DNA of 64,000 nucleotides from a bacterium (GTDB lineage Bacteria > Cyanobacteriota > Vampirovibrionia > Obscuribacterales > Obscuribacteraceae): contig WGMS01000022.1 of the NCBI GenBank assembly GCA_016124935.1, forward strand, positions 10,647 to 74,646, written 5' to 3'. Position 1 is the stretch's first letter. The number at the start of each line of letters is the position of its first letter. Shown here one piece after another: positions 8,505 to 51,544 of the stretch. The notes below the pieces were generated by a model. The model saw only the letters and a list, made by a program, of their open reading frames with translations. It was not told where the DNA came from and did no database searches. A program made the translations under genes and the position numbers.

Positions 8505-10040
8505 TTGCATCCTGTCACATTAGTAATTCTCGATGGCTGGGGAATTTCCAATCAGAGAGAAGGTAATGCCATCCTGGCAGCCAAGACGCCCAACTATGAT
8601 TTCCTCCTCAAAAATTTCGCCAATTCTAAGGTTGATGCTTCCGGCGAGGCCGTCGGCCTTCCCCGGGGATTGATGGGTAATTCCGAGGTCGGTCATTTGA
8701 CCATCGGCGCAGGCAGGGTGGTGGTCCAGAAGCTTACTCTAATCTCCAACACTATCCAGGACGGAAGTTTTTTTACCAACCCTGCCTTAATCGATGCTGT
8801 CAAGTATGCCAAAAGCCATGGAGGCAAACTGCACTTCATCGGTCTAGTTTCGGATGGATGTGTGCACTCCAGCCCGGATCATCTCGATGGTCTGCTTGAG
8901 CTGGCCAGAAGAAACAAGGTCGAGAAGACCGTCATTCATCCGATTCTAGACGGCAGGGATACACCGCCTCGGTCGGCCCTCGGCTATATGAAGGAACTCA
9001 CCGCCAAGTTGACGCCGGGGATGGATATAGGTGTGGTCTGCGGCAGATACTTTGCCATGGATCGTGATCAACGCTGGGATAGAACCGAGAAATATTACCG
9101 TGCACTCGTTTTAGGAGAAGGTCATAAAGCTGCAAGCGCCGTCGAGGCTGTCGAGCGAGCCTATGAACATGATCAGTCGGATGAGTTCATCGAACCTTAT
9201 ATAGTGAATGATCTCAGGGTCGAGTCGGGGGACGCGGTAATCTGCTTCAACTTCCGTCCAGATAGAGTGCGCCAGATCTCCCGGGTTCTGACGGTGAAGG
9301 AATTCGATGGTTTCCAGAGACCGGGCTTGCCGGATATTCACTATGTATGTCTTACTTCCTACGACACGTCTTTGAAGTTGCCGGTGGCTTTCGATCTGAG
9401 CCAGATGCCGAATCAAGATCTGTCCATGACATTGCCCGAACTCATCTCCTGTCAAAAATTGGGACAGTTTCATACCGCCGAGACCGAGAAATATGCCCAT
9501 GTCACTTATTTTTTGAATGGTGGCAAAGAGAACGAGGTCGAAGGAGAGACCCGTTCTTTGATACCGTCATTGAAAGTGGCGACTTATGATCTGGCACCGG
9601 AGATGCAGACCCCTGAAGTTTGCAGGGTCGCCTGCGAAGCGGCCAGATCTGATCGGTATCCTTTTATTGTCTTAAATTTTGCCAATCCGGATATGGTCGG
9701 TCACACCGGCGAGATGGATGCCGCGGTCCAGGCTGTGGAAGTGGTCGATGATGCTTTTGGAAAATTGCTCGAAACCACCCGAGAGCTTGAAGGGACGCTA
9801 ATTATCACCGCCGACCATGGCAACGTCGAACAGATGTTGAATGTGAAGACCGGGGATCCTCATACGGCTCATACGACTAACCCAGTACCGTTAATAGTGG
9901 CAGACTTCAATCCCGATCACAAACTTAACAGCTTTAGCCTGAATAACGGCACACTGGCGGATATCGCTCCCACTGTCATCGATATTATGGGACTTGAGAA
10001 ACCAATCGTAATGAGCGGACACAGTCTAGTCAAGAGGTAG
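8505..10040 (+). CDS. gpmI: 2,3-bisphosphoglycerate-independent phosphoglycerate mutase
   Basis: Contains LVILDGWG, NSEVGHLTIGAGR and ITADHGN motifs. The track ORF starts at 8394, but TTG at 8505 sits 7 nt after AAGGAG and gives the canonical N-terminus (M)HPVTLVILDGWG. Confidence 0.9.
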   Translation: MHPVTLVILDGWGISNQREGNAILAAKTPNYDFLLKNFANSKVDASGEAVGLPRGLMGNSEVGHLTIGAGRVVVQKLTLISNTIQDGSFFTNPALIDAVKYAKSHGGKLHFIGLVSDGCVHSSPDHLDGLLELARRNKVEKTVIHPILDGRDTPPRSALGYMKELTAKLTPGMDIGVVCGRYFAMDRDQRWDRTEKYYRALVLGEGHKAASAVEAVERAYEHDQSDEFIEPYIVNDLRVESGDAVICFNFRPDRVRQISRVLTVKEFDGFQRPGLPDIHYVCLTSYDTSLKLPVAFDLSQMPNQDLSMTLPELISCQKLGQFHTAETEKYAHVTYFLNGGKENEVEGETRSLIPSLKVATYDLAPEMQTPEVCRVACEAARSDRYPFIVLNFANPDMVGHTGEMDAAVQAVEVVDDAFGKLLETTRELEGTLIITADHGNVEQMLNVKTGDPHTAHTTNPVPLIVADFNPDHKLNSFSLNNGTLADIAPTVIDIMGLEKPIVMSGHSLVKR

Positions 10041-10282
10041 CGCTTGTCTGGAAAATCGCATCGCCAGCGGCTTTTCGAGAATCTCGCTCTTCAGAATGCG
10101 ATTCTATTTATTTATCGGTCCATATCAAGTGGTTTGCTATCGAAAAAATACCGGTTATAATTGCGGCCGTCATAGGTAGGCGATTATTTAATCCAATTAC
10201 TAAATGATTGCCTCCGATCATGTAAAACTCGAGCATTGTCGAAGGTAGAATCATTAACCTCATAAGGAGACGGATCAATCTC

Positions 10283-10594
10283 ATGATTATCAGATTTAGA
10301 ACTCTTGCCCTGGCTTTTGCAAGCCTTTTCCTGGTAGTTTCCCTCGCCGCTTGCGGTGGTGGAGCTGACAAAGCCGGAACCGAAGGCGGCGGAACAGAAA
10401 CCGCTGCTCCTGCTGAAGGCGGCGCTGAAGCTGGTGCTGGTGCCGGTGCAGAAGCTGGTGCAGAAGCTGGCGCTGAAGCCGGTAAAGAAGCTGGCGCTGA
10501 AGCTGGTGCCGAAGCTGGTGCTGGTGCCGGTGCTGACGCTGGTGCCGATGCCGGTGCCGACGCTGGTGCTGAAGCCGGCGGTGAAGAAAAGTAA
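10283..10594 (+). CDS. small lipoprotein with Ala/Gly/Glu(Asp) tetrapeptide repeats
   Basis: Signal peptide plus lipobox (LVVSLAAC|GGG), then about 20 copies of (A/E/D)AG(A/E/K) units. A strong intrinsic terminator follows. Confidence 0.7.
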   Translation: MIIRFRTLALAFASLFLVVSLAACGGGADKAGTEGGGTETAAPAEGGAEAGAGAGAEAGAEAGAEAGKEAGAEAGAEAGAGAGADAGADAGADAGAEAGGEEK

Positions 10595-10618
10595 TAGCTC
10601 GATAGCTTGAATACTTTG

Positions 10619-10648
10619 AAACGCTCCCTTTCGAGGGAGCGTTTTTTA
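10619..10648 (+). terminator. rho-independent terminator
   Basis: ACGCTCCCT (10621-10629) / TTCG loop / AGGGAGCGT (10634-10642), followed by TTTTTT. Confidence 0.85.
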
Positions 10649-10725
10649 ATTCGATTTTATAAGTTCCGGAACTTTATTTGGAATAAGCTGTCAAAATTGC
10701 AATTCCACCTTCTGAAGGACAGATC

Positions 10726-11742
10726 ATGAAATCCAGCTCTGCATTAAACCGCTCGAAACCGGTTATCGCCGCTACCGTTGCTCTTATCGGTTTTGCTCTT
10801 GGTCTCGGTCTCACATCTAATTCGATTGCTTTTGGCCAGGGGCAGGGTGGTGGGACGATTCCACTGCAGATGCCTTTCAATAACAACGCACCAAATCCAA
10901 TGCAGGGGATTTTGAATCAACCTCTCACCAATACCGGTCCTGGAGCGATTGTGGTTCCTCCTATCTCTTTTGTGGATATAAACACCGGTAGATTCGGCAA
11001 GCTCGAAATCGATCTGGATGATGGCGAGTTCATGGAAGGCTCTTGCAAAAACATACATCTGGTCGCCAGGGATATGGACCTTCGTGAGGGGCTTTTGAAA
11101 TCTCTCGATATCTCTCTTTCGCGAGGAAATTTCCAGGACTTCATCGTCGATACCATGAGTTTGAGCACAAAAGGATCATTGCGTTTTGATACCGGAGTGC
11201 TGTTCAATCAAAAAGTGCTTCAGTTTACCGAGCCCGCCGAAGCACAGGTGGAAGCCGAAATCAGTCAGGAGAGCCTGAACTCCTTTTTGAAATCACCCCA
11301 TACTCTAGACAGGCTTTCTGTCACCGCCGGCAGCAAAGTCGGTGCCATCGCCGGTCTTCTGGGAGCGAACGCACCGCAAATAGGCTTGGTTATTTCTGAT
11401 GGTAATCTAGCCCTGGGCAAGAGGAATTCGGTCAATATTTCTCTGGACAGCAAAGTGGGCATGGGTCAATATGCCCTCAATATTCCGGTTGAGATTGATA
11501 GCAAGCTGGAACTTCGAGACGGATGGGTCAAAATCACTGATACCAAGCTCAAGACCAGCGGTAAAGAGATTTCGCCTCAACTCTCCAATATGATCGTTCA
11601 GAAAGTGAACAACCTCTCCTCTCTGGGCACCCGTTCCGATGATATTCACTTTAAATTCACCAGCCTGGAAGTAAAAGCCGGCAAGAAATTCATTGTCAAG
11701 GGAACCGCTTCGATCAATCGTCTGCGCTTCGGACGCAGCTGA
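10726..11742 (+). CDS. hypothetical secreted protein
   Basis: 338 aa with an N-terminal signal-like segment (KPVIAATVALIGFALGLGLTSNSIAFG). I recognise no family motif. Confidence 0.6.
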   Translation: MKSSSALNRSKPVIAATVALIGFALGLGLTSNSIAFGQGQGGGTIPLQMPFNNNAPNPMQGILNQPLTNTGPGAIVVPPISFVDINTGRFGKLEIDLDDGEFMEGSCKNIHLVARDMDLREGLLKSLDISLSRGNFQDFIVDTMSLSTKGSLRFDTGVLFNQKVLQFTEPAEAQVEAEISQESLNSFLKSPHTLDRLSVTAGSKVGAIAGLLGANAPQIGLVISDGNLALGKRNSVNISLDSKVGMGQYALNIPVEIDSKLELRDGWVKITDTKLKTSGKEISPQLSNMIVQKVNNLSSLGTRSDDIHFKFTSLEVKAGKKFIVKGTASINRLRFGRS

Positions 11743-11874: not shown

Positions 11875-12600
11875 ATGTACCGGCGTAGAGATAACAGACA
11901 GTGGGACCAGCTTCGGCCGGTCAAGTTCAATCGAAACTTCACCAAGAACGCAGATGGTTCGGTGCTTGTGGAGTTCGGCGATACTAAGGTATTTACCACA
12001 GCAAAAATTGAAGAGCGTGTGCCTGCCTTTCTTATCGGTAAGGGAGAGGGCTGGATTACGGCAGAGTATTCTTTGTTGCCAGGATCCACCCTGGTGCGCA
12101 ACCAGAGAGAGGTGAAGCGGGGGCAACCGTCCGGCCGAACCTCGGAGATTCAACGCCTGATCGGGCGTTCGCTTCGGTCGATAGTCGATCGCAGAGCTCT
12201 GGGAGAGAGGACCATAACCGTGGACTGCGATGTTTTGCAAGCCGACGGCGGTACCCGGGTAGCCAGTATCTGCGGCGGTTTTCTTGCTTTATACGATGCC
12301 CTGCTCAAGCTTCAGAAAGAAGGTCTCTGGGATGAATTGCCCCTGACCGAGCATCTGGCGGCGGTCTCTATCGTTCAGCTCAAGGGGCAATTGCTTCTGG
12401 ATCCGAACTATAACGAGGATTCTCAGGCCGACATGGACAGCAATATCGTCCTTACCGAATCCGGGCGCATTCTGGAACTGCAGATTACTTCGGAAGCCGA
12501 GCCTTACAGGGCGGACAAGGTCCAGGAGCTTATCGATCTGGCAAGTAAAGGAATTAACGAAATAATATCTTTGCAGTACAAAGCCCTGGGTCATCGCTGA
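11875..12600 (+). CDS. rph: ribonuclease PH
   Basis: LRPVKFNRNFTKNADGSVLVEFGDTKVFTTA...GEGWITAEYSLLPGST is the RNase PH signature. ATG at 11875 (MYRRRDNRQWDQLRP) fits the family length better than the track start at 11770. Confidence 0.9.
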   Translation: MYRRRDNRQWDQLRPVKFNRNFTKNADGSVLVEFGDTKVFTTAKIEERVPAFLIGKGEGWITAEYSLLPGSTLVRNQREVKRGQPSGRTSEIQRLIGRSLRSIVDRRALGERTITVDCDVLQADGGTRVASICGGFLALYDALLKLQKEGLWDELPLTEHLAAVSIVQLKGQLLLDPNYNEDSQADMDSNIVLTESGRILELQITSEAEPYRADKVQELIDLASKGINEIISLQYKALGHR

Positions 12601-12733
12601 GCACTGTCAGATCCATATGACTAATGAAAATATGGTGTTAAGACAATCATAAATTTATCTTCTATACCTTCTGACAACGGCTATATTACCGTTAAACTAG
12701 AGGCCAAGAAGTACTGATCGGCGATTAATCCCA

Positions 12734-14305
12734 TTGACTGAAACGAAGACCGAATCCACCTCCAATGCAGATCGGCTCAACCCGATCAAAGAGACCTTCA
12801 AGGATGTAACCATACCCCGGTTGCTCAAATCCTCCTGGAGGGTTTTCGTCAGGGTACGCAATCTTCAAGGAACGAAAGCCGCTCTTCGGGTTTTTCCGAT
12901 CATCTGGATAATCGTTCGTCTCGTCAAAGGGCTCTCCAAATTCCATGCTGCCGAATACGAGCGTAATCGTGTTTCCGACCAGCCTGATGATGCCGAGGAG
13001 GCCGCCCTCACCAACGAAGAATACGACGAGTATCGAGAGTTGGGACGCTGGTTGACCAGGCAGCTCCACGATCTGGGTCCTACTTTTATCAAAATCGGTC
13101 AGACCCTCTCTACCCGGGCAGATTTGATGCCGCTGCCCGCTATGCTGGAGCTGGCTAAACTCCAGGAGAATGTCGATAAGTTCGAACTCTCCGTGGCCAG
13201 AGAGATAATCTTTCGAGAGCTGGGCGCTTATCCCGAGGATCTTTATGAGAGCTTCGAGACAGTTCCTCTGGCTGCCGCCAGCCTTGCCCAGGCGTATAAA
13301 GCCACCCTTCGGGACGGACGGGCTGTGGTAGTCAAAGTGCAGAGACCCGGTCTTGCCGGCATCATCGCCCAGGACATACAGGTTCTGGGGGCGGTGGCCG
13401 ATGAGGTGATGGAGTACCCCAACCTCTGCAGGCATACCGATTGGCCTGATGTGGTGGAAGAGTTCGCCAGGACTATTTTTGAAGAGATAGACTATATTCG
13501 CGAGGGAAGGAACGCAGATACCTTCAGGCGTAATTTTCGTAATTTCGAGCAGATTTATATCCCCCGAATCATCTGGAGGATGACCGGCCGTCGGGTATTG
13601 ACCGTCGAGTTCGTACCGGGCGTTCGGATTGACGATGTCGAAGCCATCGATCAGATGGGCCTATCGAGAGAAGAAGTAACCAAACTCGGTGCCAAATTCT
13701 ATCTTCGTCAACTGCTCGAGGATGGCTTCTTCCATGCCGATCCCCATCCGGGCAATCTCCGTGTGATGGAAGACGGACGCATCGGTGTCTTCGATTTCGG
13801 GATGGTGGGTAAGATCTCTCCTGATTTGAAGATGCATATGGTCAACGCTCTCATTCATGTCACCCAGAGAGACTACAGAGCCCTGGTGGATGATTTTGTG
13901 GGCATGGGTTTTCTCACCGAGGAGGTCGATAGAGATGCCCTCTGTGCCGACCTGACACCGATAATCGATACTCGATTCTCGGAAGGCATGAGTAAGGTCC
14001 GTTTTCGCAAGATGCTCTTCGACTTCTCCGACGTCTGCTACCAGTATCCTTTCCGCCTGCCTTCCGAATTCACCTATGTGATGCGCGCTCTGCTCACTTT
14101 AGAAGGGGTAGCCCTGACCATCAATCCCAAATTCAACTTCATCGACGCGGCCATGCCCTTTGCCCACCGGTTGCTCTTGCAGAACAATAAGATCATCCGA
14201 GAGGCGCTGTTTAAGGAAGTCTTCACCGATGGTAAGTTCAATAAACAGGCTGCGGTCAAGCTTATTCGGAACGCTGCCAGCCTGACCGGAACCTTGCTCG
14301 GCTGA
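12734..14305 (+). CDS. ABC1/UbiB-family atypical protein kinase (AarF domain)
   Basis: 523 aa with LGPTFIKIGQTLSTRADLMP, VVVKVQRPG and FHADPHPGNL motifs. The TTG start is uncertain. Confidence 0.85.
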   Translation: MTETKTESTSNADRLNPIKETFKDVTIPRLLKSSWRVFVRVRNLQGTKAALRVFPIIWIIVRLVKGLSKFHAAEYERNRVSDQPDDAEEAALTNEEYDEYRELGRWLTRQLHDLGPTFIKIGQTLSTRADLMPLPAMLELAKLQENVDKFELSVAREIIFRELGAYPEDLYESFETVPLAAASLAQAYKATLRDGRAVVVKVQRPGLAGIIAQDIQVLGAVADEVMEYPNLCRHTDWPDVVEEFARTIFEEIDYIREGRNADTFRRNFRNFEQIYIPRIIWRMTGRRVLTVEFVPGVRIDDVEAIDQMGLSREEVTKLGAKFYLRQLLEDGFFHADPHPGNLRVMEDGRIGVFDFGMVGKISPDLKMHMVNALIHVTQRDYRALVDDFVGMGFLTEEVDRDALCADLTPIIDTRFSEGMSKVRFRKMLFDFSDVCYQYPFRLPSEFTYVMRALLTLEGVALTINPKFNFIDAAMPFAHRLLLQNNKIIREALFKEVFTDGKFNKQAAVKLIRNAASLTGTLLG

Positions 14306-14583: not shown

Positions 14584-15306
14584 ATGAGTACAGCCCTTAC
14601 CACACCGGCGGCCATCACGGCGACCTGTTCCAACTGCGACAGTTTGATCGAGTCCATGGCCAAGTTCTGTGGAGATTGCGGTGAGATAACCGAGTTCGGC
14701 TCGGGAGTATTCCAGGCTATCTACGAGACCAGAGCAGTGCCGGAGTATTCCGCGCAGTTGCCCGAACCGGCCATCAACGCCCCATCAGATAATGAAGCCA
14801 GCCAGGTGTCCTACCATGAGCTGGCTTTATTAGAGTCTTACAGGCTTGCCAATCGTTCCGGCCAGGAGATGGAATGGGCGCCTACCCCGACGCCGACCAA
14901 CAATCAGGGTAGGGTAATCGAGCACAATAACGAACGGGTAGCAGCGCCGCGGTTCGCCCGGGAAGGTAAAGCCCAGGCAAAGCGGACCCAGCTGCCGGAG
15001 TCGCTTGTTAGAGAGATGCAGTCTCTCAATGCCCTGCTTCTCAGAGAGAGAATTTTTCTGGGTATTCACTGGACGATTTTTGTCACTGCCAATTTAATCG
15101 GATTCTATCTGGCTTCCAAATGTTATGCCGGTTTTGTCGGAGACGAAGTGACCAGATTCATCATGGCTCTTACCCCCCTTACTTTTATCAACGCCGTTGC
15201 CCTGGCTTGTCTTGCTCCCATCCGCGGTACCAGAAGAGAGATTGCTCGGGTAAAAGAGCGTATGCAGTATTTGAAAGTTCAGCTCGATTACGGCAATCTT
15301 ATATAG
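14584..15306 (+). CDS. zinc-ribbon protein with two C-terminal transmembrane helices (hypothetical)
   Basis: 240 aa with an N-terminal CSNC-x11-CGDCG zinc ribbon, an acidic/low-complexity linker and two hydrophobic helices (IFLGIHWTIFVTANLIGFYLA; FIMALTPLTFINAVALACLAPI). Its 3' end overlaps the RT gene's 3' end by 8 bp, convergently. Confidence 0.65.
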   Translation: MSTALTTPAAITATCSNCDSLIESMAKFCGDCGEITEFGSGVFQAIYETRAVPEYSAQLPEPAINAPSDNEASQVSYHELALLESYRLANRSGQEMEWAPTPTPTNNQGRVIEHNNERVAAPRFAREGKAQAKRTQLPESLVREMQSLNALLLRERIFLGIHWTIFVTANLIGFYLASKCYAGFVGDEVTRFIMALTPLTFINAVALACLAPIRGTRREIARVKERMQYLKVQLDYGNLI

Positions 15307-16255
15307 ACGGTATAGTCTGCTTGGCCTGGCTGATCAATCGGTTTAAAACCGTTCTGTATTTTTCCACCTCTTTGCTCTGGGGATCGAGCATGGAGAGAAT
15401 GGAGAGATGATTCTCCAGCTCTATTACCCGGTCGCGATAGCGCTCCGGTTCCACTTCGGCCTGGTGAAAAATAGCTCTTATCTTTCTGCGTTTTGCTCTG
15501 GGCAAGCTGGGTTTCTCATTTACCACCAGCCCCGAGACCATCTGCTTTGAATTATGTTTGTGGAATCTGGTTTTCTTGATATTCATGCGAAAGCCTTCCA
15601 CTTCGACAATATCGGATATGGTGCGCATATCCGCCAGAGAAAAATTGCCATTTCCGGAAATGGTGATATCGTCGCAATATCTGGTATACGACCAATCGTT
15701 GGCAGCGCAGAAATCAGCCAGGTCGGCGTCCATGGAATAGGCGATTAAATTGGCGAGATAGGGAGAGGATGGCGCTCCCTGGGGCAAACAGCCTATATAG
15801 GTGGAGAGTTCGGTCAGCACGCATGCAACGGGGAAAGAGAAGCCCAGTCTAAGATACAGTCCGAGCACCCGCTCGGACGAAATAGAGCCGAAGAAGTCTT
15901 CGAGGTCCGTATTGAATACGAATCTTTTCTTGCAGTGGGGTTGGGCATTGCTGAGGATGGACATACCCGGACGAAATCCGGTGCATTCATCCGGCAGGGG
16001 AATGTCGGCCAGAAATTTTTTGACTATCGCTTTCTGAACTTTCTTGAGCGGCTCCCTGGGCGCGGCCACGGTTCTCATATCGCCGGTGCTTTTCTTTTTG
16101 CGAAAGCGAGTGTAGAACTCTTCTGCTCTGTAAATAAATCTGAGTAGCTCGAACTCTGAAGAATCGAGGGCGTTCGCCAGTTGGGCAACGGTTTGAATGT
16201 CGTACATATAAGGCACCGGCAAAACTCCCGCTTCTCGACTATGAATTATTTGCAC
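15299..16255 (-). CDS. retron-type reverse transcriptase
   Basis: RT1 FRKKKSTGDMRTVAAP; RT2 LKKVQKAIVKKFL; retron NAxxH = NAQPH (15935-15949), followed by NTDLEDFFGSI; RT4 LPQGAPSSPYLANL; RT5 YTRYCDDITISG (YCDD at 15668-15679); RT6 GFRMNIKKTRF; RT7 QMVSGLVVNEKPSLPRAKRRKIRAIFH (VTG-like VSG at 15530-15538). The maximal ORF starts at GTG 16255. GTG 16216 (GGGAG 9 nt upstream) or ATG 16207 (MYDIQTVAQLANAL) are likelier starts. Confidence 0.85.
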   Translation of the reverse strand: MQIIHSREAGVLPVPYMYDIQTVAQLANALDSSEFELLRFIYRAEEFYTRFRKKKSTGDMRTVAAPREPLKKVQKAIVKKFLADIPLPDECTGFRPGMSILSNAQPHCKKRFVFNTDLEDFFGSISSERVLGLYLRLGFSFPVACVLTELSTYIGCLPQGAPSSPYLANLIAYSMDADLADFCAANDWSYTRYCDDITISGNGNFSLADMRTISDIVEVEGFRMNIKKTRFHKHNSKQMVSGLVVNEKPSLPRAKRRKIRAIFHQAEVEPERYRDRVIELENHLSILSMLDPQSKEVEKYRTVLNRLISQAKQTIPSI

Positions 16256-16560
16256 AAAAGTAGAAAACGGGGAAAGACTCCTTTACCCCGCTAGGAAGAA
16301 TGCGCTCAAGACGCTCGTTTCCTGCATTAGAAGACTCGTGCATAACACTACTTGAACCGAGTCCCAGCAATTGAATGGTTAGCTGGAAGTTACCTACAAC
16401 ATCTGGTTGACGAAACATCAACCTTCCCGCCGAAGCGGTCCAGAGTAAATAGAGTCTTCCCTCGTCTCTACGTTTCGTTGATTTTCAGTTGTTTGTACCG
16501 CCCTCAATCAACACACTGATCTAACTCTAAGTTGTAACGAATGTCAACGAACTTTCGGTT
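16256..16560 (-). ncRNA. candidate retron non-coding RNA (msr-msd) region; boundaries not determined
   Basis: ORF-poor leader directly 5' of the RT on the same strand. Verified hairpins on the - strand: 16477-16512 (GTTGATT/AATCAAC); 16450-16470 (TAGAG/CTCTA); 16427-16438 (CCGC-UUCG-GCGG); 16405-16423 (GGTTGA/TCAACC); 16333-16363 (GACTCG/CGAGTC); 16268-16290 (CGGGG-AAAG/CTTT-CCCCG). Candidate long-range a1/a2 pairing joins 16451-16461 to 16270-16281, 11 bp with one bulge. Confidence 0.4.
16519..16547 (-). promoter_or_regulatory. possible sigma70-type promoter for the RT leader
   Basis: Perfect -35 TTGACA (16542-16547), 17-nt spacer, weak -10 TTAGAT (16519-16524) on the - strand. It lies about 120 nt downstream of the gcvPB stop. 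Confidence 0.2.
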
Positions 16561-16666
16561 TCTTTAGCGGATTCACACGGGGAATATATGGGTATGGATC
16601 GCTGGAGATATCTATCGTCGAGGCACTGAATATGATGCCCGGTTCAACTGAGCGTCCTCAAGTTTC

Positions 16667-18127
16667 CTATTGATTCGGACTCCAGCGAAGATTCGGTTTT
16701 CTGGCTGCCAGAGCTTCATCCAGCTTCTTCACCGGTGTATTGTGCGGCGCATCCTTGACCGTATCCGGAGTCTCGATACTCTCTTTGTCGATCTCTTTCA
16801 TTATCGAAATGAATTGATTGAGCGTCTCTCTCGATTCGGTTTCGGTCGGTTCGATCATCATCGCTTCCGGTACCACCAGAGGGAAGTAGACTGTCGGTGC
16901 GTGTACTCCGAAGTCGAGCATGCGCTTGGCGATATGAGCAGTGGAAACTCCCCTTGCTTTCTGGGTGGAGCCGGACATGACGAATTCGTGCATACAGGGT
17001 TGGCTGTATGGAACCTTATAGTTTTCTTTGAGACTCTGCTTCAGATAGTTAGCGTTCAAAATAGCGTCTCTGGACACCTGAGAAAGCCCGTTAGCGCCGT
17101 TGGCCAGGATATAGCTATAGGCACGGACTAAGATGCCGAAATTGCCGTAGAAGCCTTTTACCTTGCCGATTGAATCGGGACGATTCCAATCGAACTGGAA
17201 AAGCTCACCGGTTTTCTTGATGGTCGGTTTCGGGAAATAGGGCTCCAGCTCTTTGATGGCTGCAACGGCACATCCGCCCGGGCCACCGCCACCGTGGGGG
17301 GTGGAGAAGGTTTTATGGAGATTGAGGTGACAGACGTCGAAGCCCATGTCTCCAGGGCGGACCAGACCCATGACCGCGTTGAGATTGGCGCCGTCATAAT
17401 AAAGCAGACCACCGGCTTTATGCACCAACTCTTGCACTGTCCAGATCTCTTCCTCGAAGAGTCCCAGGGTGTTGGGATTGGTCAGCATGATCGCAGCCAC
17501 ATCGGGACCCAGGGCTGATTTAAGGGCATCGATATCGACTAGACCTCTATCGTTCGATTGGATCTCGACCACCTCGAAACCAGCCATGGCAGCTGTGGCC
17601 GGGTTGGTGCCGTGGGCGGTGTCAGGTACTATCACCTTGGTACGCTTATGATCGCCGCGGGCTTCAAAATAGGCTCGAATCAGAAGGAGACCGGTGAGTT
17701 CTCCGTGGGCTCCTGCTGCCGGCTGGAAAGTGACATGGGGCAATCCGACGATTTCGGAAATCGCCTTTTCCAGATTCCAGATAAGCTCAAGGGCTCCTTG
17801 AATTTGATCTTCCGGTTGATGAGGATGCAAATCGCGGAATCCGGAAAGTCCTGCCATGGCGTCGTTCACCTTGGGGTTGTACTTCATCGTACAGGAACCA
17901 AGCGGATAGAAGCCGGTGTCGATGCTGTGATTGAGTTGACTGAGACGAACATAGTGTCTGACACAGTCTAACTCGCTCACCTCGGGCAGTTGAGCCGCCT
18001 CTTTACGAAGCAGTTCGGGCGGGACCAAGTCCTCCAGCTTCTTCTCCGGTACGCCGGGCTCAGGAAGAACTGCAGCGGTTCTTCCTTGGCTGGATTTTTC
18101 ATAGATCAACTTTTCCATTTTCATCAA
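16667..18127 (-). CDS. gcvPB: glycine dehydrogenase (aminomethyl-transferring) subunit 2
   Basis: 486 aa. The PLP-lysine context [19 protein letters not shown] and overall P-protein subunit 2 pattern fit. Confidence 0.92.
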
Positions 18128-45515: not shown

Positions 45516-47411
45516 ATGTCCGATACCGAGAGAAAGCCAACCTCTATCTGTACAGAATGCGGTTTCATGTCCGCCGATGGAGCCCGTTTCTGTCCGCATG
45601 ACTCTACAAAACTGGAATCGCTTTCTGAAGATTCACCGATCGGCACTATAGTAGCAGATCGCTACCTGATCTTATCCGCCCTGGGAAGAGGCGGTATGAG
45701 CGTCGTTTACAAAGCGCGCCACCAGTACATGCATCGCAATGTCGCACTCAAGATGATTCGAGCCGAATTGGAAGAGGATTCCTTTTTGCTCAAACGGCTG
45801 GAGGTCGAGTCGAAGGCGATAAGCTCCCTCAAGCATCCCCATATCGTTCCGGTTTATGACTTTGGCAAGCTGGAGGACGGCACCCCCTTTCTTGTCATGG
45901 AATACCTTACCGGATGCGATTTGAAAGAGTATATCGATGGCAATGCCCCTCTGGATTATAGAGAAATACTGCCGCTGTTCAAGGATGTTTGCGATGCCCT
46001 GGCCCATGCGCACCGCAATGGGGTGATTCATCGAGACATAAAGCCCTCCAACATAATTGTCACTCGGTCGGAGGACAATGGAAGGATGGTCCCTGTCGTG
46101 GTCGATTTCGGCATAGCCAGGATGGTCAACCTCGAGGGCGAGGACCTTCATCGGCTGACAGCTACAGGTCAGGTTTTCGGCAGTCCTTTCTACATGAGTC
46201 CTGAGCAGTGCAGGGCGGTTAAACCGGATGCCAGGTCTGATATCTATGCCCTCGGTTGTGTTATCTACCAGGCGCTCACCGGGGAGATGCCGGTTAGAGG
46301 CAATACTCCATTCGATACCATGGTCAAGCATATTCAAGAGCAACCAAGAGCATTCGCTTCCATCCCTGATCTGGCTGCGGATGTGATACCGAGCAGGATA
46401 GAGCAATGTGTCTTCAAGGCGCTGGAGAAAGACCCTGGTAAAAGATTTCAGAGTATGGAGGAATTCTCTCGCGCTATCGAAGCCTGTCTGACTTCTTCTT
46501 TTTCTTCTTCTTCTTCTAAGTCTCTGACCCGGGCGGCAGAGTTTCCGCCGGTCGGGAAGGTTGCTGCTCTCGACTCTTCTGGTGGCAAATATGGTGCTTA
46601 CGCGATCCTGCTTCTCTTGATTTCGGTGGTGGCGATAATGGGCTTCCAGCGGTTTGGCAGTCTTCTGTTATCCGGCAGTGCATCGAACCAGAACCAGAAC
46701 CAGAGCCAGAACCCAGAGCCTGAGCCGCAGAAAGAGTCGGTGCAAGAACCCGTTAAAGAACCCCAGTTCTCCGCACCCTTCTCTTTGCCGGATAGCACAA
46801 TATCTGTAGAGACCCCGGCAGAGAAAGAAGACAAAGAGAAGGTTTCGGTTCCCGGAGGCACAGCGGCGGTTGATCGTTCGCTTCAAGGGATGCAGCTTCC
46901 CGCGTCTGCCCCGGCGCCAGTACCGGTTGAGGTCGCTTTTGCCAATTTCAATCCCGTAGAGTTCCGACGAATTCCCGGCTGGCAATACAATGCCTCTGCC
47001 TACGAACATAATCAGGCTCTGGTCGGCCTGGATGTGCGCAGAAACAACAGTGGGTTTGCCGGTATCTCCTACACTTTCCATTTCTCTTATGATGGCAATG
47101 GCCTGGATGGAGTCTCGAAAAGCGCCTTTGAAGCGCTTCGTCGCCGGTCTTATGCTTCAGACCATGTTGATGTCGGTTTAGTGAAATCCAGAAAAATCCA
47201 GTACGGAAAAGATCCGGGGGAGGTTGTAAAACTTGACGTGCTCGAATTCAAGAGAACGGCGCATGGAGAGAATCCCCGCACCGTTGTTATCTATTACCGA
47301 ACCCAGAGCGGAGTAGAAGCACTGCAGCTGATACCGATATCAGACTCGAATGCCCGTACCGAGAACCTTGCAAATGCTCTTGCTGTCAGATGTTTTCGGT
47401 CTCAACGCTGA
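45516..47411 (+). CDS. Ser/Thr protein kinase with TM segment and extracytoplasmic C-terminal domain
   Basis: 631 aa. Hanks kinase motifs are present (GRGGMSVVYKA, HRDIKPSNI, DFG, SPEQ). An N-terminal CTEC...FCPH zinc-ribbon-like segment, one TM helix (YAILLLLISVVAIMGF) and an NQ/PE low-complexity linker are also visible. Confidence 0.9.
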   Translation: MSDTERKPTSICTECGFMSADGARFCPHDSTKLESLSEDSPIGTIVADRYLILSALGRGGMSVVYKARHQYMHRNVALKMIRAELEEDSFLLKRLEVESKAISSLKHPHIVPVYDFGKLEDGTPFLVMEYLTGCDLKEYIDGNAPLDYREILPLFKDVCDALAHAHRNGVIHRDIKPSNIIVTRSEDNGRMVPVVVDFGIARMVNLEGEDLHRLTATGQVFGSPFYMSPEQCRAVKPDARSDIYALGCVIYQALTGEMPVRGNTPFDTMVKHIQEQPRAFASIPDLAADVIPSRIEQCVFKALEKDPGKRFQSMEEFSRAIEACLTSSFSSSSSKSLTRAAEFPPVGKVAALDSSGGKYGAYAILLLLISVVAIMGFQRFGSLLLSGSASNQNQNQSQNPEPEPQKESVQEPVKEPQFSAPFSLPDSTISVETPAEKEDKEKVSVPGGTAAVDRSLQGMQLPASAPAPVPVEVAFANFNPVEFRRIPGWQYNASAYEHNQALVGLDVRRNNSGFAGISYTFHFSYDGNGLDGVSKSAFEALRRRSYASDHVDVGLVKSRKIQYGKDPGEVVKLDVLEFKRTAHGENPRTVVIYYRTQSGVEALQLIPISDSNARTENLANALAVRCFRSQR

Positions 47412-51377: not shown

Positions 51378-51471
51378 GCTTTGAAAGTGGCGGAGAGGGT
51401 GGGATTCGAACCCACGGAACAGGTTTAAGCCCGTTCAACTTCTTAGCAGGAAGCCGCTTTCGACCACTCAG
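51378..51471 (-). tRNA. tRNA-Ser (anticodon GCU), class II with long variable arm, CCA encoded
   Basis: The reverse complement reads GGAGAGG-TG-GCT-GAGTGGTCGAA-AGC-G-GCTTC-CU[GCU]AA-GAAGT-(variable arm)-GTGGG-TTCGAAT-CCCAC-CCTCTCC-G-CCA. All stems pair. Confidence 0.93.
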
Positions 51472-51544
51472 CCACCTCTCCAAGATTTATTTCCTCTATA
51501 TGATACCAGGACTTAGAAGACCTAAAACCAAATAATCGAACAAT

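Follow-up and report, generated by a model that had tools for sequence, protein, structure and literature searches.

What does a retron reverse transcriptase (RT) do when it stands alone among housekeeping genes, with no effector gene beside it? The question is raised by the interval 15299-16666 of a 64,000-nucleotide stretch of contig WGMS01000022.1 (hereafter the window, at its full length). The stretch comes from a member of Candidatus Obscuribacterales / Melainabacteria, in keeping with the cyanobacteria-related host that an earlier, sequence-only reading had proposed. That reading had offered three explanations for the locus: a retron whose effector is encoded in convergent, overlapping orientation, a system that has only an RT plus non-coding RNA (ncRNA), and a domesticated RT. 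The first did not survive, since the convergent gene is found at the same place in genomes that have no RT; the other two both fit the evidence assembled here. We consider it probable, at roughly 0.78, that 15299-16666 is a complete and functional stand-alone retron cassette whose RT belongs to the Ec86 / type II-A lineage. Its parts, as predicted, are the following.

15299..16207, minus strand: retron reverse transcriptase, 302 aa, with NAQPH, YCDD and VSGLVVN motifs (profile and structure matches; ratio of nonsynonymous to synonymous substitution, dN/dS)
16264..16468, minus strand: putative retron ncRNA (msr-msd), 205 nt, flanked by the a1/a2 inverted repeats (fold, covariation, conservation)
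16443..16468, minus strand: a1 arm of the terminal stem, pairing with 16264-16289
16264..16289, minus strand: a2 arm of the terminal stem (inverted repeat, consensus fold, pair counts)
16440, minus strand: candidate branching (priming) G, unpaired, directly 3' of the a1/a2 stem (consensus structure)
16427..16438, minus strand: msr stem-loop 1 (SL1), CCGC-UUCG-GCGG, paired in 7 of 7 sequences
16405..16423, minus strand: msr stem-loop 2 (SL2), GGUUGA-UGUUUCG-UCAACC, invariant in all clade A loci
16290..16404, minus strand: presumed msd template region (conserved start block, length-variable distal part)
16519..16547, minus strand: candidate promoter, -35 box TTGACA (16547-16542), 17-nt spacer, -10-like TTAGAT (16524-16519) (conservation)
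16564..16579, minus strand: upstream motif CGTGTGAATCCGCTAA, 17 nt 5' of the -35 box (alignment of clade A orthologues)

The RT frame is open from the first GTG (16255), which would give a protein of 318 residues (15299-16255, minus strand). Most likely, the coding sequence begins instead at the ATG at 16207, because all orthologues start at the corresponding internal methionine, Met17 (MYDIQ/MYDIN...), and the stretch between the GTG and this methionine shows no conservation in frame. The 302-residue product, close to the 300 or so first estimated, has no fused or extra domain, as judged from the Pfam and profile scans and the family alignment. It matches Pfam RVT_1 (5e-21) and the PADLOC profiles RT_II-A (the top match), RT_XIII, RT-Protease_XI, RT-TIR_XII and RT_III-A, with E-values of 4e-74 to 1e-69; the PADLOC retron profiles score 170-250 bits. 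The NCBIfam model retron_St85_RT gives 215 bits, just under its family cutoff of 235, and models for group II introns, Drt2, Drt3a and Drt5 reach only 19-42 bits. The relatives of solved structure (PDB) are retron RTs only, Ec86 being the best (1.4e-39), followed by Ec67, Kva2, Ec78, Ec83 and Eco8. The exact window RT is not on record, and P0001, 96% identical to it, stood in as the query. By these comparisons, the protein is a retron RT, as had been proposed, and is closest to the Ec86 / type II-A lineage, yet the II-A, XIII, XI, XII and III-A profiles of PADLOC score nearly alike. The two motifs initially singled out as retron-specific hold throughout a family alignment of 29 sequences: NAxxH (NAQPH in the window) is conserved, and the V(S/T)GLVVN block is kept as V-x-G, with either S or T as x. 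In the catalytic box, YCDD, the cysteine is near-invariant, two of the 29 sequences having YGDD. Nearly throughout the radiation, the NDT-linked P0050 included, YCDD replaces the YADD usual in retrons; P0022 and P0023 have YGDD and Ec86 itself YADD.

Between gcvPB and the RT lies a leader of 459 nt (16208-16666), whose earlier description as long and structured proved accurate. The gcvPB-RT region was aligned from 13 orthologous loci; the leader is structured and conserved beyond chance, and on the basis of its sequence and predicted fold we identify it as an msr-msd ncRNA plus a promoter. As a single sequence, the 205-nt RNA has a minimum free energy of -76.9 kcal/mol (z = -4.3), and none of 200 shuffled sequences folds as well. 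RNAalifold, applied to seven sequences of clade A (the clade of the window), yields a consensus of one terminal stem, a pair of hairpins and a 3' domain, with 10 compensatory pairs in all, and 94.3% of the cells of this consensus structure are paired, as against 47-56% in slid controls. Eight of the 17 a1/a2 pairs are changed on both sides, and the covariation score was reached by none of 500 shuffles. The a1 and a2 arms are wholly different in sequence and yet complementary in L005, L011, L013, L103 and L020 (L numbers designate the loci compared with the window). The arms (a1 / a2) read GAGACGAGGGAAGACUC / GAGUCUUUCCCCGUUUU in the window, GGGGAGGAACCAU / AUGGUUCCUCCCC in L005, UAGAUAGACUCCUUGCUUGC / GCAAGCAAGGAAUCUAUCUA in L013, UGGAGGGUGGCAUC... 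/ ...GAUGCCACGCCUC in L103 and AGGGAUUACGCCUUCUU / AAGAAGGCGUGUCCCUU in L020. Clades A and B share the motif CUCUG|G (16445-16440), in which CUCUG pairs with CGGGG and the unpaired G follows.

The loop of SL1 varies (UUCG, AUCC, GAAU, GUAU, UUAC). SL2 recurs, with compensatory changes in its stem (GGCUGA...UCAGCC, GGUUGG-CGUUUCG-CCAACC), upstream of the retron RTs of L022, L023, L026, L033 and L067, and can be regarded as the signature hairpin of this retron lineage. A covariance model of the msr part (R1) has a single match in the window (E = 2e-14) and also matches upstream of the RT in L096, L105 and L106. The Ec86 ncRNA, whose sequence matches 48 E. coli genomes at 100%, holds GGAUGUUGUUUCGGCAUCC at the position equivalent to SL2; the window hairpin is identical to it at 15 of 19 positions and the differences are compensatory, a likeness that we take as a resemblance and not as proof of homology. 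In the presumed msd, the template-start block AGGAAACGAGCGUCUUGAGCGCAUUCUUCCUAG (16291-16323) is conserved in clade A and abuts a2, and the part beyond it (16324-16404) varies in length. Two other candidate features of the leader were rejected. A 60-aa open reading frame (ORF; 16239-16421, minus strand) was discarded as coding sequence, since the orthologues have indels across it that are not multiples of three, and a terminator or attenuator hairpin (CGGGG...CCCCG with a U-tract at a2), although it folds in the window, has no conserved counterpart in L005 or L012.

Upstream of the ncRNA, TTGAC and its spacing are conserved in all orthologues, and the layout TTGAC-N17-T(T)A(G/A)AT also stands ahead of the sister-clade cassettes of L105, L021, L106, L103 and L020; it is this conservation that makes TTGACA-17-TTAGAT a candidate promoter. 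The motif upstream of it recurs in L020 as CCGTGTGAAAGCGCTAA (L020:3314-3330), at the same distance from TTGAC, and may be an operator, the site of a regulator controlling the retron. In clade A and L020 alike, the form CGTGTGAA(T/A)(C/G)CGCTAA is conserved at 17-20 nt from the -35 box of the retron, on its upstream side.

The locus has a stable history. The order GlcF - RNase D-like - gcvPB - [retron] - Zn-ribbon - ABC1 - RNase PH - LmeA is found at 11 distinct Obscuribacterales loci, a count from which near-duplicate contigs are excluded and in which RT identities run from 98% down to 58%. A neighbour-joining (NJ) tree of the RTs agrees with a tree of ABC1 and RNase PH in its three groups and in the branching within them. 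Between the window and L001, where synonymous divergence (dS) is 0.39-0.59 in the genes compared, dN/dS is 0.022 for the RT, 0.021 for gcvPB, 0.027 for ABC1, 0.023 for the RNase D-like gene and 0.069 for the Zn-ribbon gene. Other pairs of RTs give values of 0.02-0.06 at a dS of up to above 1, and no orthologue has a broken ORF. Between the window and L001, at a dS of about 0.55, identity is 98.5% in the ncRNA and 76-88% in neighbouring intergenic DNA, and pairs of loci with a dS of 0.6-1.6 still have 93-97% identity in the ncRNA. Phage and plasmid records hold no relative of the RT above 38% identity and the msr hairpin motif is absent from the viral contig collection; a phage or plasmid origin was rejected on these grounds. 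The GC content of the cassette (48%, against 52% for the window) is unremarkable. The cassette is apparently vertically inherited and domesticated rather than a mobile gene of a defence island, to judge from these comparisons.

No co-oriented effector ORF is present in the RT transcription unit (15299-16666), in agreement with the sequence-only reading. Within the 64-kb window, no NDT-like sequence was detected (tblastn with four NDT effectors), nor any Ku or LigD sequence. The NDT effector is absent at all clade A loci, and clade A, L103, L105, L106 and L020 have no gene in common that accompanies the RT. It had been asked whether orthologous loci would show a conventional effector that was simply lost here; the orthologues have none, and the NDT effector appears only in more distant relatives, with an RT identity of 47% or less. 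There it lies directly upstream of the ncRNA and RT: in L104 (RT 47% identical; Pfam STM3845; PADLOC NDT_II-A, 2e-23), and in L023 and L022 (PADLOC NDT_II-A, 2e-22 and 1.5e-51). In the Ec86 locus, the upstream gene is annotated 'retron St85 family effector protein'. In the window, the slot of the NDT gene is taken by the promoter and the 3' end of gcvPB. Judged by its gene content, the window cassette is a stand-alone retron, effector-less in cis. The statement that known retrons are tripartite, from which the locus had seemed anomalous, was too strong, since stand-alone (msr-msd)-RT cassettes, possibly domesticated, are known in RT clade 2 (Ec107 branch) and in clade 11 (Mestre 2020, PMC7736814).

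Several observations weigh against a complete and functional cassette of this kind. We infer by analogy both the G at about 16440 as msDNA (multicopy single-stranded DNA) primer and the extent of the cDNA. Where retrons typically have a single long and stable hairpin in the msd, the presumed msd here folds into three short ones, and its predicted fold as cDNA is weak (z = -1.45). Rfam, searched with the window and the leader at the gathering threshold and at E up to 10, gave no ncRNA match. The best match of R1 in the Ec86 locus is indeed the Ec86 msr hairpin, at an E-value of only 0.15, which is not significant alone. TTGACA-17-TTAGAT is not called by a consensus promoter scanner, its -10 box being weak; a terminator scan found none between gcvPB and the cassette, and read-through transcription into the cassette is therefore possible. 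The absence of the RT in L099-L101 may be either ancestral or due to loss. Lastly, the defence-like genes found at the retron site in some relatives may mean that the site is a small defence islet and that the retron has a defence role.

If the stand-alone cassette works as its layout suggests, the candidate promoter, dedicated to it, would drive a transcript carrying first the 205-nt msr-msd ncRNA and then the RT ORF. By analogy with retron biochemistry, the RT would bind the msr hairpins, chiefly SL2, and the 2'-OH of the unpaired G beside the a1/a2 stem would prime cDNA synthesis. The template would start at ...UUCCUAG (16291) and be copied from 16291 upward in the plus-strand sense of the window, the product presumably being a branched RNA-DNA msDNA. 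The cassette occupies the gap in which gcvPB and the Zn-ribbon gene end convergently, the place of a bidirectional terminator in genomes that lack the RT. It would have been inherited vertically from there in a subgroup of Candidatus Obscuribacterales, under purifying selection of housekeeping level on both RT and ncRNA.

What the product would be for is a separate matter. With the toxin gone and RT-msDNA long retained, RT-msDNA would have to possess a selectable activity, alone or with a partner encoded elsewhere. We see about an even chance that it has a non-canonical, domesticated cellular role and is not part of a self-contained toxin-antitoxin module of abortive infection. Such a role might most plausibly be related to DNA ends or repair, because the sister clades of the window RT are linked to Ku and LigD and because another free-standing RT, G2L4, provides a precedent.

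It is possible, though we think it doubtful, that the cassette is instead one part of a split system: a conventional anti-phage retron with its toxin in trans, in which RT-msDNA acts as antitoxin or sensor. In type II-A, RT-msDNA is the antitoxin of the NDT toxin RcaT (bioRxiv 10.1101/2020.06.22.160168), trans effectors have been raised as an option for orphan retrons (Mestre et al., PMC7736814), and the defence-like genes mentioned above gather at the same intergenic site in L005, L006 and L011. Yet the window has no NDT-like gene anywhere in its 64 kb, and strict vertical inheritance at one site, core-like dN/dS and the lack of relatives borne on mobile genetic elements are atypical of defence. 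In addition, most genomes with orphan retrons are without homologues of the known retron effectors (PMC7736814). That the function should be something other than either a non-canonical cellular role or defence with a trans effector seems unlikely.

The repair theme derives from the relatives of the window RT. Homologues at 41-52% identity are solo RTs of about 295 aa with the same msr motif and promoter type, at another location; solo, effector-less loci include L103, L106, L020, L026 and L033. In L103, L106 and L021, the cassette lies directly downstream of LigD and is co-oriented with it, and L105 has the same arrangement with a DUF900 hydrolase between the two. Ku is upstream in L103, L105 and L106, and the short L021 contig covers only the 3' part of LigD. 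By gene context, the sister-clade cassettes are these.

L103:4608-8888: LigD-retron cassette
L105:2057-7891: LigD-retron cassette
L106:3898-7903: LigD-retron cassette
L021:261-2606: LigD-retron cassette

On either side of the Ku-LigD-retron block, L103, L105 and L106 have different genes. Nine further RT clusters are on contigs identical in size to those of LigD matches from an independent search, several of them of 4-7 kb; the RT/LigD pairs are P0024/P0298, P0033/P0255, P0035/P0253, P0038/P0257, P0051/P0274, P0063/P0301, P0066/P0333, P0071/P0305 and P0074/P0337, plus P0081/P0335. The nearest named LigD sequences are from Candidatus Obscuribacterales and Melainabacteria. A metagenome scan with the RT alignment returned mostly generic retron RTs (33-41% identity), the only close ones being L019-L021. 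In an unbootstrapped NJ tree rooted on Ec86, the clade at the gcvPB site is monophyletic and nested among many deep LigD-linked branches, and because of this nesting the tree suggests that the position next to LigD is ancestral and that the clade of the window relocated. Our literature search found no paper linking retrons with Ku or LigD, and the linkage may be functional or merely old synteny.

From this neighbourhood a more ambitious proposal can be drawn, in which the window cassette would be a relocated member of a large and ancient effector-less Ec86-like radiation, ancestrally downstream of Ku-LigD and domesticated for DNA-end metabolism or break repair. We hold this to be distinctly unlikely as a whole. 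Within it, RT-msDNA might assist DNA-end metabolism or stand guard over it, for instance by monitoring or helping Ku/LigD in the way that the Ec48 retron guards RecBCD, or alternatively might, by analogy with G2L4, take a direct part in double-strand-break repair. For the window cassette itself, a repair role is pure speculation, drawn from the gene neighbourhood of its relatives and not from the window.

Two observations on these relatives may be added. Behind the distant solo retron RTs of L026 (L026:3209-6138) and L067 (L067:411-3109), which have the SL2 hairpin, the same two genes follow on independent contigs, one for a sensor-kinase-like membrane protein and one for a LuxR-type response regulator. 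This linkage may represent orthologous synteny or an association. In L103, the retron lies beside a DnaB helicase gene (L103:8990-11905, minus strand) with an intein containing a LAGLIDADG homing-endonuclease domain (Pfam).

The genes on either side of the window cassette were also considered as partners. As first described, gcvPB is co-oriented upstream and a convergent gene lies downstream; both are resident and syntenic with or without the RT, and form the boundaries of the retron.

16667..18127, minus strand: gcvPB, glycine dehydrogenase subunit 2, boundary gene outside the retron (Pfam GcvP2_C, GDC-P; syntenic with or without the RT)
14584..15306, plus strand: gene for a Zn-ribbon protein with two transmembrane (TM) helices, 240 aa, boundary gene outside the retron (at the same site without the RT in L099-L101)

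According to one proposal, which we regard as very improbable, the locus is a tripartite retron whose effector is this convergent, 3'-overlapping Zn-ribbon protein, in the manner of the 2TM effector of type IV. The protein has an N-terminal Zn-ribbon, a low-complexity linker and a conserved C-terminal module with two predicted TM helices; its gene adjoins the RT at every clade A locus and, in the window, shares 8 nt with the end of the RT frame. In L099-L101, on the other hand, a full-length orthologue (34% identity) lies between ABC1 and gcvPB, in the same place and orientation, without any RT. At the RT-less 'empty site' of L099 (L099:8625-8678), the Zn-ribbon gene and gcvPB end convergently 54 nt apart, and the spacer holds a bidirectional intrinsic terminator, AAAAAAAGCUCGGGA-CUUA-UCCCGAGCUUUUU; no comparable terminator follows gcvPB in the RT-bearing genomes. 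The 8-nt overlap is specific to the window and was traced to a six-residue C-terminal extension of its RT relative to that of L001. No overlap exists in the orthologues checked, where gaps of about 2-75 nt, or whole genes, separate the RT from the Zn-ribbon gene: a Ser/Thr kinase-LRR (leucine-rich repeat) gene in L005, the gene of a 635-aa membrane protein in L006 and L011. The Zn-ribbon family comprises about 111 clusters, compared with 23 RT clusters in clade A. Its named members are nearly all from Obscuribacterales, Melainabacteria or Cyanobacteria metagenome-assembled genomes, and the gene is invariably between ABC1 and gcvPB. A genome-collection scan with the Zn-ribbon alignment returned six true loci among patterns dominated by generic Zn-ribbon matches. 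The sister-clade RTs of L103, L105, L106 and L020 have no such neighbour, and the gene has no PADLOC match. Because it occurs at the same site without the RT, because the overlap is not conserved and because genes are inserted between the two, the Zn-ribbon gene is, on comparative grounds, a resident chromosomal gene beside which the cassette landed and not a retron component. As partners, gcvPB and the RNase D-like gene were likewise rejected, the same arrangement being found without the RT and genes being inserted between them and the RT in L006 and L011. In the Zn-ribbon family at large, the C-terminal membrane module is strongly conserved (GDEVT...LTPLTFIN...GTRREI) and the linker is highly variable and Q/P-rich, with lengths of 176-408 aa.

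The locus could also be an inert remnant, a decaying type II-A retron that has lost its toxin and is drifting, as the missing NDT effector of its relatives might lead one to think. This is hardly tenable, because the selection analysis shows constraint: the ORFs are intact with dN/dS of 0.02-0.06, the catalytic and retron motifs are conserved, and the ncRNA is conserved far above the neutral intergenic level, with compensatory changes that keep its pairing. Next to no credence can be given to a non-retron RT (group II intron-like, diversity-generating retroelement or Abi/UG/DRT) behind an unrelated structured 5' untranslated region, for which there are weak matches to group_II_RT_mat (42 bits), Drt2 (37 bits) and Drt3a (26 bits), since the retron profiles score far higher and the PDB relatives are all retron RTs, Rfam finds no intron RNA domains in the window or leader, the window has no template/variable repeat pair, and the leader has the a1/a2-G-hairpin architecture of an msr-msd.

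How does the cassette compare with the systems already described? With Retron-Eco1 (Ec86) and the other type II-A retrons, such as Retron-Sen2, it shares the closest structural match and the top profile, conserved NAxxH and V(T/S)G motifs, and an ncRNA immediately ahead of the RT that combines an a1/a2 stem with an unpaired G and a pair of msr hairpins. In making msDNA, it would work in the manner of an Ec86-type retron. Unlike them, it has no NDT or DNA-binding effector in cis, in the orthologues or in the 64 kb; it has YCDD where Ec86 has YADD, and its msd is without the one long hairpin. Moreover, Ec86 resides in a P2-like prophage, whereas the window cassette is vertically inherited at a fixed chromosomal site. 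The adjacent NDT / RcaT / STM3845-type effector that defines type II-A is missing, as is any effector gene or fused domain that would place the locus among the tripartite defence retrons (types I-XIII of Mestre). The closest parallel in organization is with the orphan cassettes, namely the Retron-Eco5/Ec107 branch of clade 2 and the Actinobacteria-restricted clade 11, which likewise have no associated protein, occur in restricted taxa and are inherited vertically in a way that suggests domestication. The 11 distinct clade A loci, which have only resident neighbours in common, are stand-alone (orphan) retrons in the sense of Mestre et al. 2020. They differ from the clade 2 and 11 orphans in that the window RT is Ec86-like (PADLOC RT_Ec107-like scores lower, 2.8e-63), in that the host belongs to the Obscuribacterales, in the explicit record of synteny, tree congruence and dN/dS given here, and in the recurrent Ku-LigD neighbourhood of the sister clades.

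Type XIII, known from Myxobacteria (Mx162, Mx65), provides the second-best profile, RT_XIII (4.9e-74), and is the one retron type reported to track host phylogeny (PMC7736814). Its partners are WH-SWIM and HEAT/ARM-repeat proteins and its ncRNA is distinct; none of these is at the window. In type IV, the 2TM effector is co-transcribed, whereas the 2-TM gene of the window is convergent and occurs without the RT in L099-L101. G2L4 is a free-standing chromosomal RT with a YIDD box and a proposed or proven role in host DNA repair (bioRxiv 10.1101/2022.03.14.484287). It resembles the window RT in its altered YxDD box (YIDD vs YCDD), and the analogy concerns the Ku-LigD-linked sister clade; it differs in belonging to another RT family and in having no msr-msd RNA.

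What is new here is an Ec86-like lineage of stand-alone retron in a non-photosynthetic cyanobacterial host group, together with the explicit housekeeping-grade constraint on its RT and ncRNA and the Ku-LigD neighbourhood of its sister clades. Retrons are now treated as tripartite toxin-antitoxin defence systems, and what orphan cassettes do is a question that Mestre et al. 2020 explicitly left open. The present lineage offers a clean test case, being that of the best-understood RT (Ec86) with its NDT toxin gone. It has been kept at one site across family-level divergence, under selection of gcvPB strength on the protein and on the whole ncRNA, a pattern which speaks for the view that RT-msDNA complexes can serve a selectable function even where no toxin lies in cis. 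If the Ku-LigD neighbourhood were functional, it would tie retrons to double-strand-break repair; and if the proposal of domestication in that context were true, the cassette would be the first among retrons to serve the cell in a core function other than abortive infection. As a compact, self-promoted retron of 1.3 kb whose ncRNA is under strong constraint, it may have practical interest too, as a scaffold for editing.

The intergenic site between gcvPB and the Zn-ribbon gene is a local insertion hotspot. Insertions are found at L006:3971-6844 and 9113-11020, L011:8767-10671 and 12189-14279, L015:8559-12059 and L005:8982-11015. One sublineage (L006, L011) has, upstream of the retron, a 690-aa P-loop ATPase (PADLOC mad8, 5e-11) with a 251-aa partner and, downstream of it, the 635-aa protein, which is multi-TM and matches no family. 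At the hotspot, L015 carries a Tn3-family transposase and a recombinase, and in L005 the Ser/Thr kinase-LRR protein is PD-T4-6-like. A Ser/Thr kinase domain 38% identical to the L005 kinase is encoded in the window itself (45648-46478, plus strand), where it does not adjoin the retron. The sole Rfam match at the gathering threshold in the 64 kb is a 91-nt tRNA (51391-51481, minus strand; 59 bits), whose length suggests a long variable arm.

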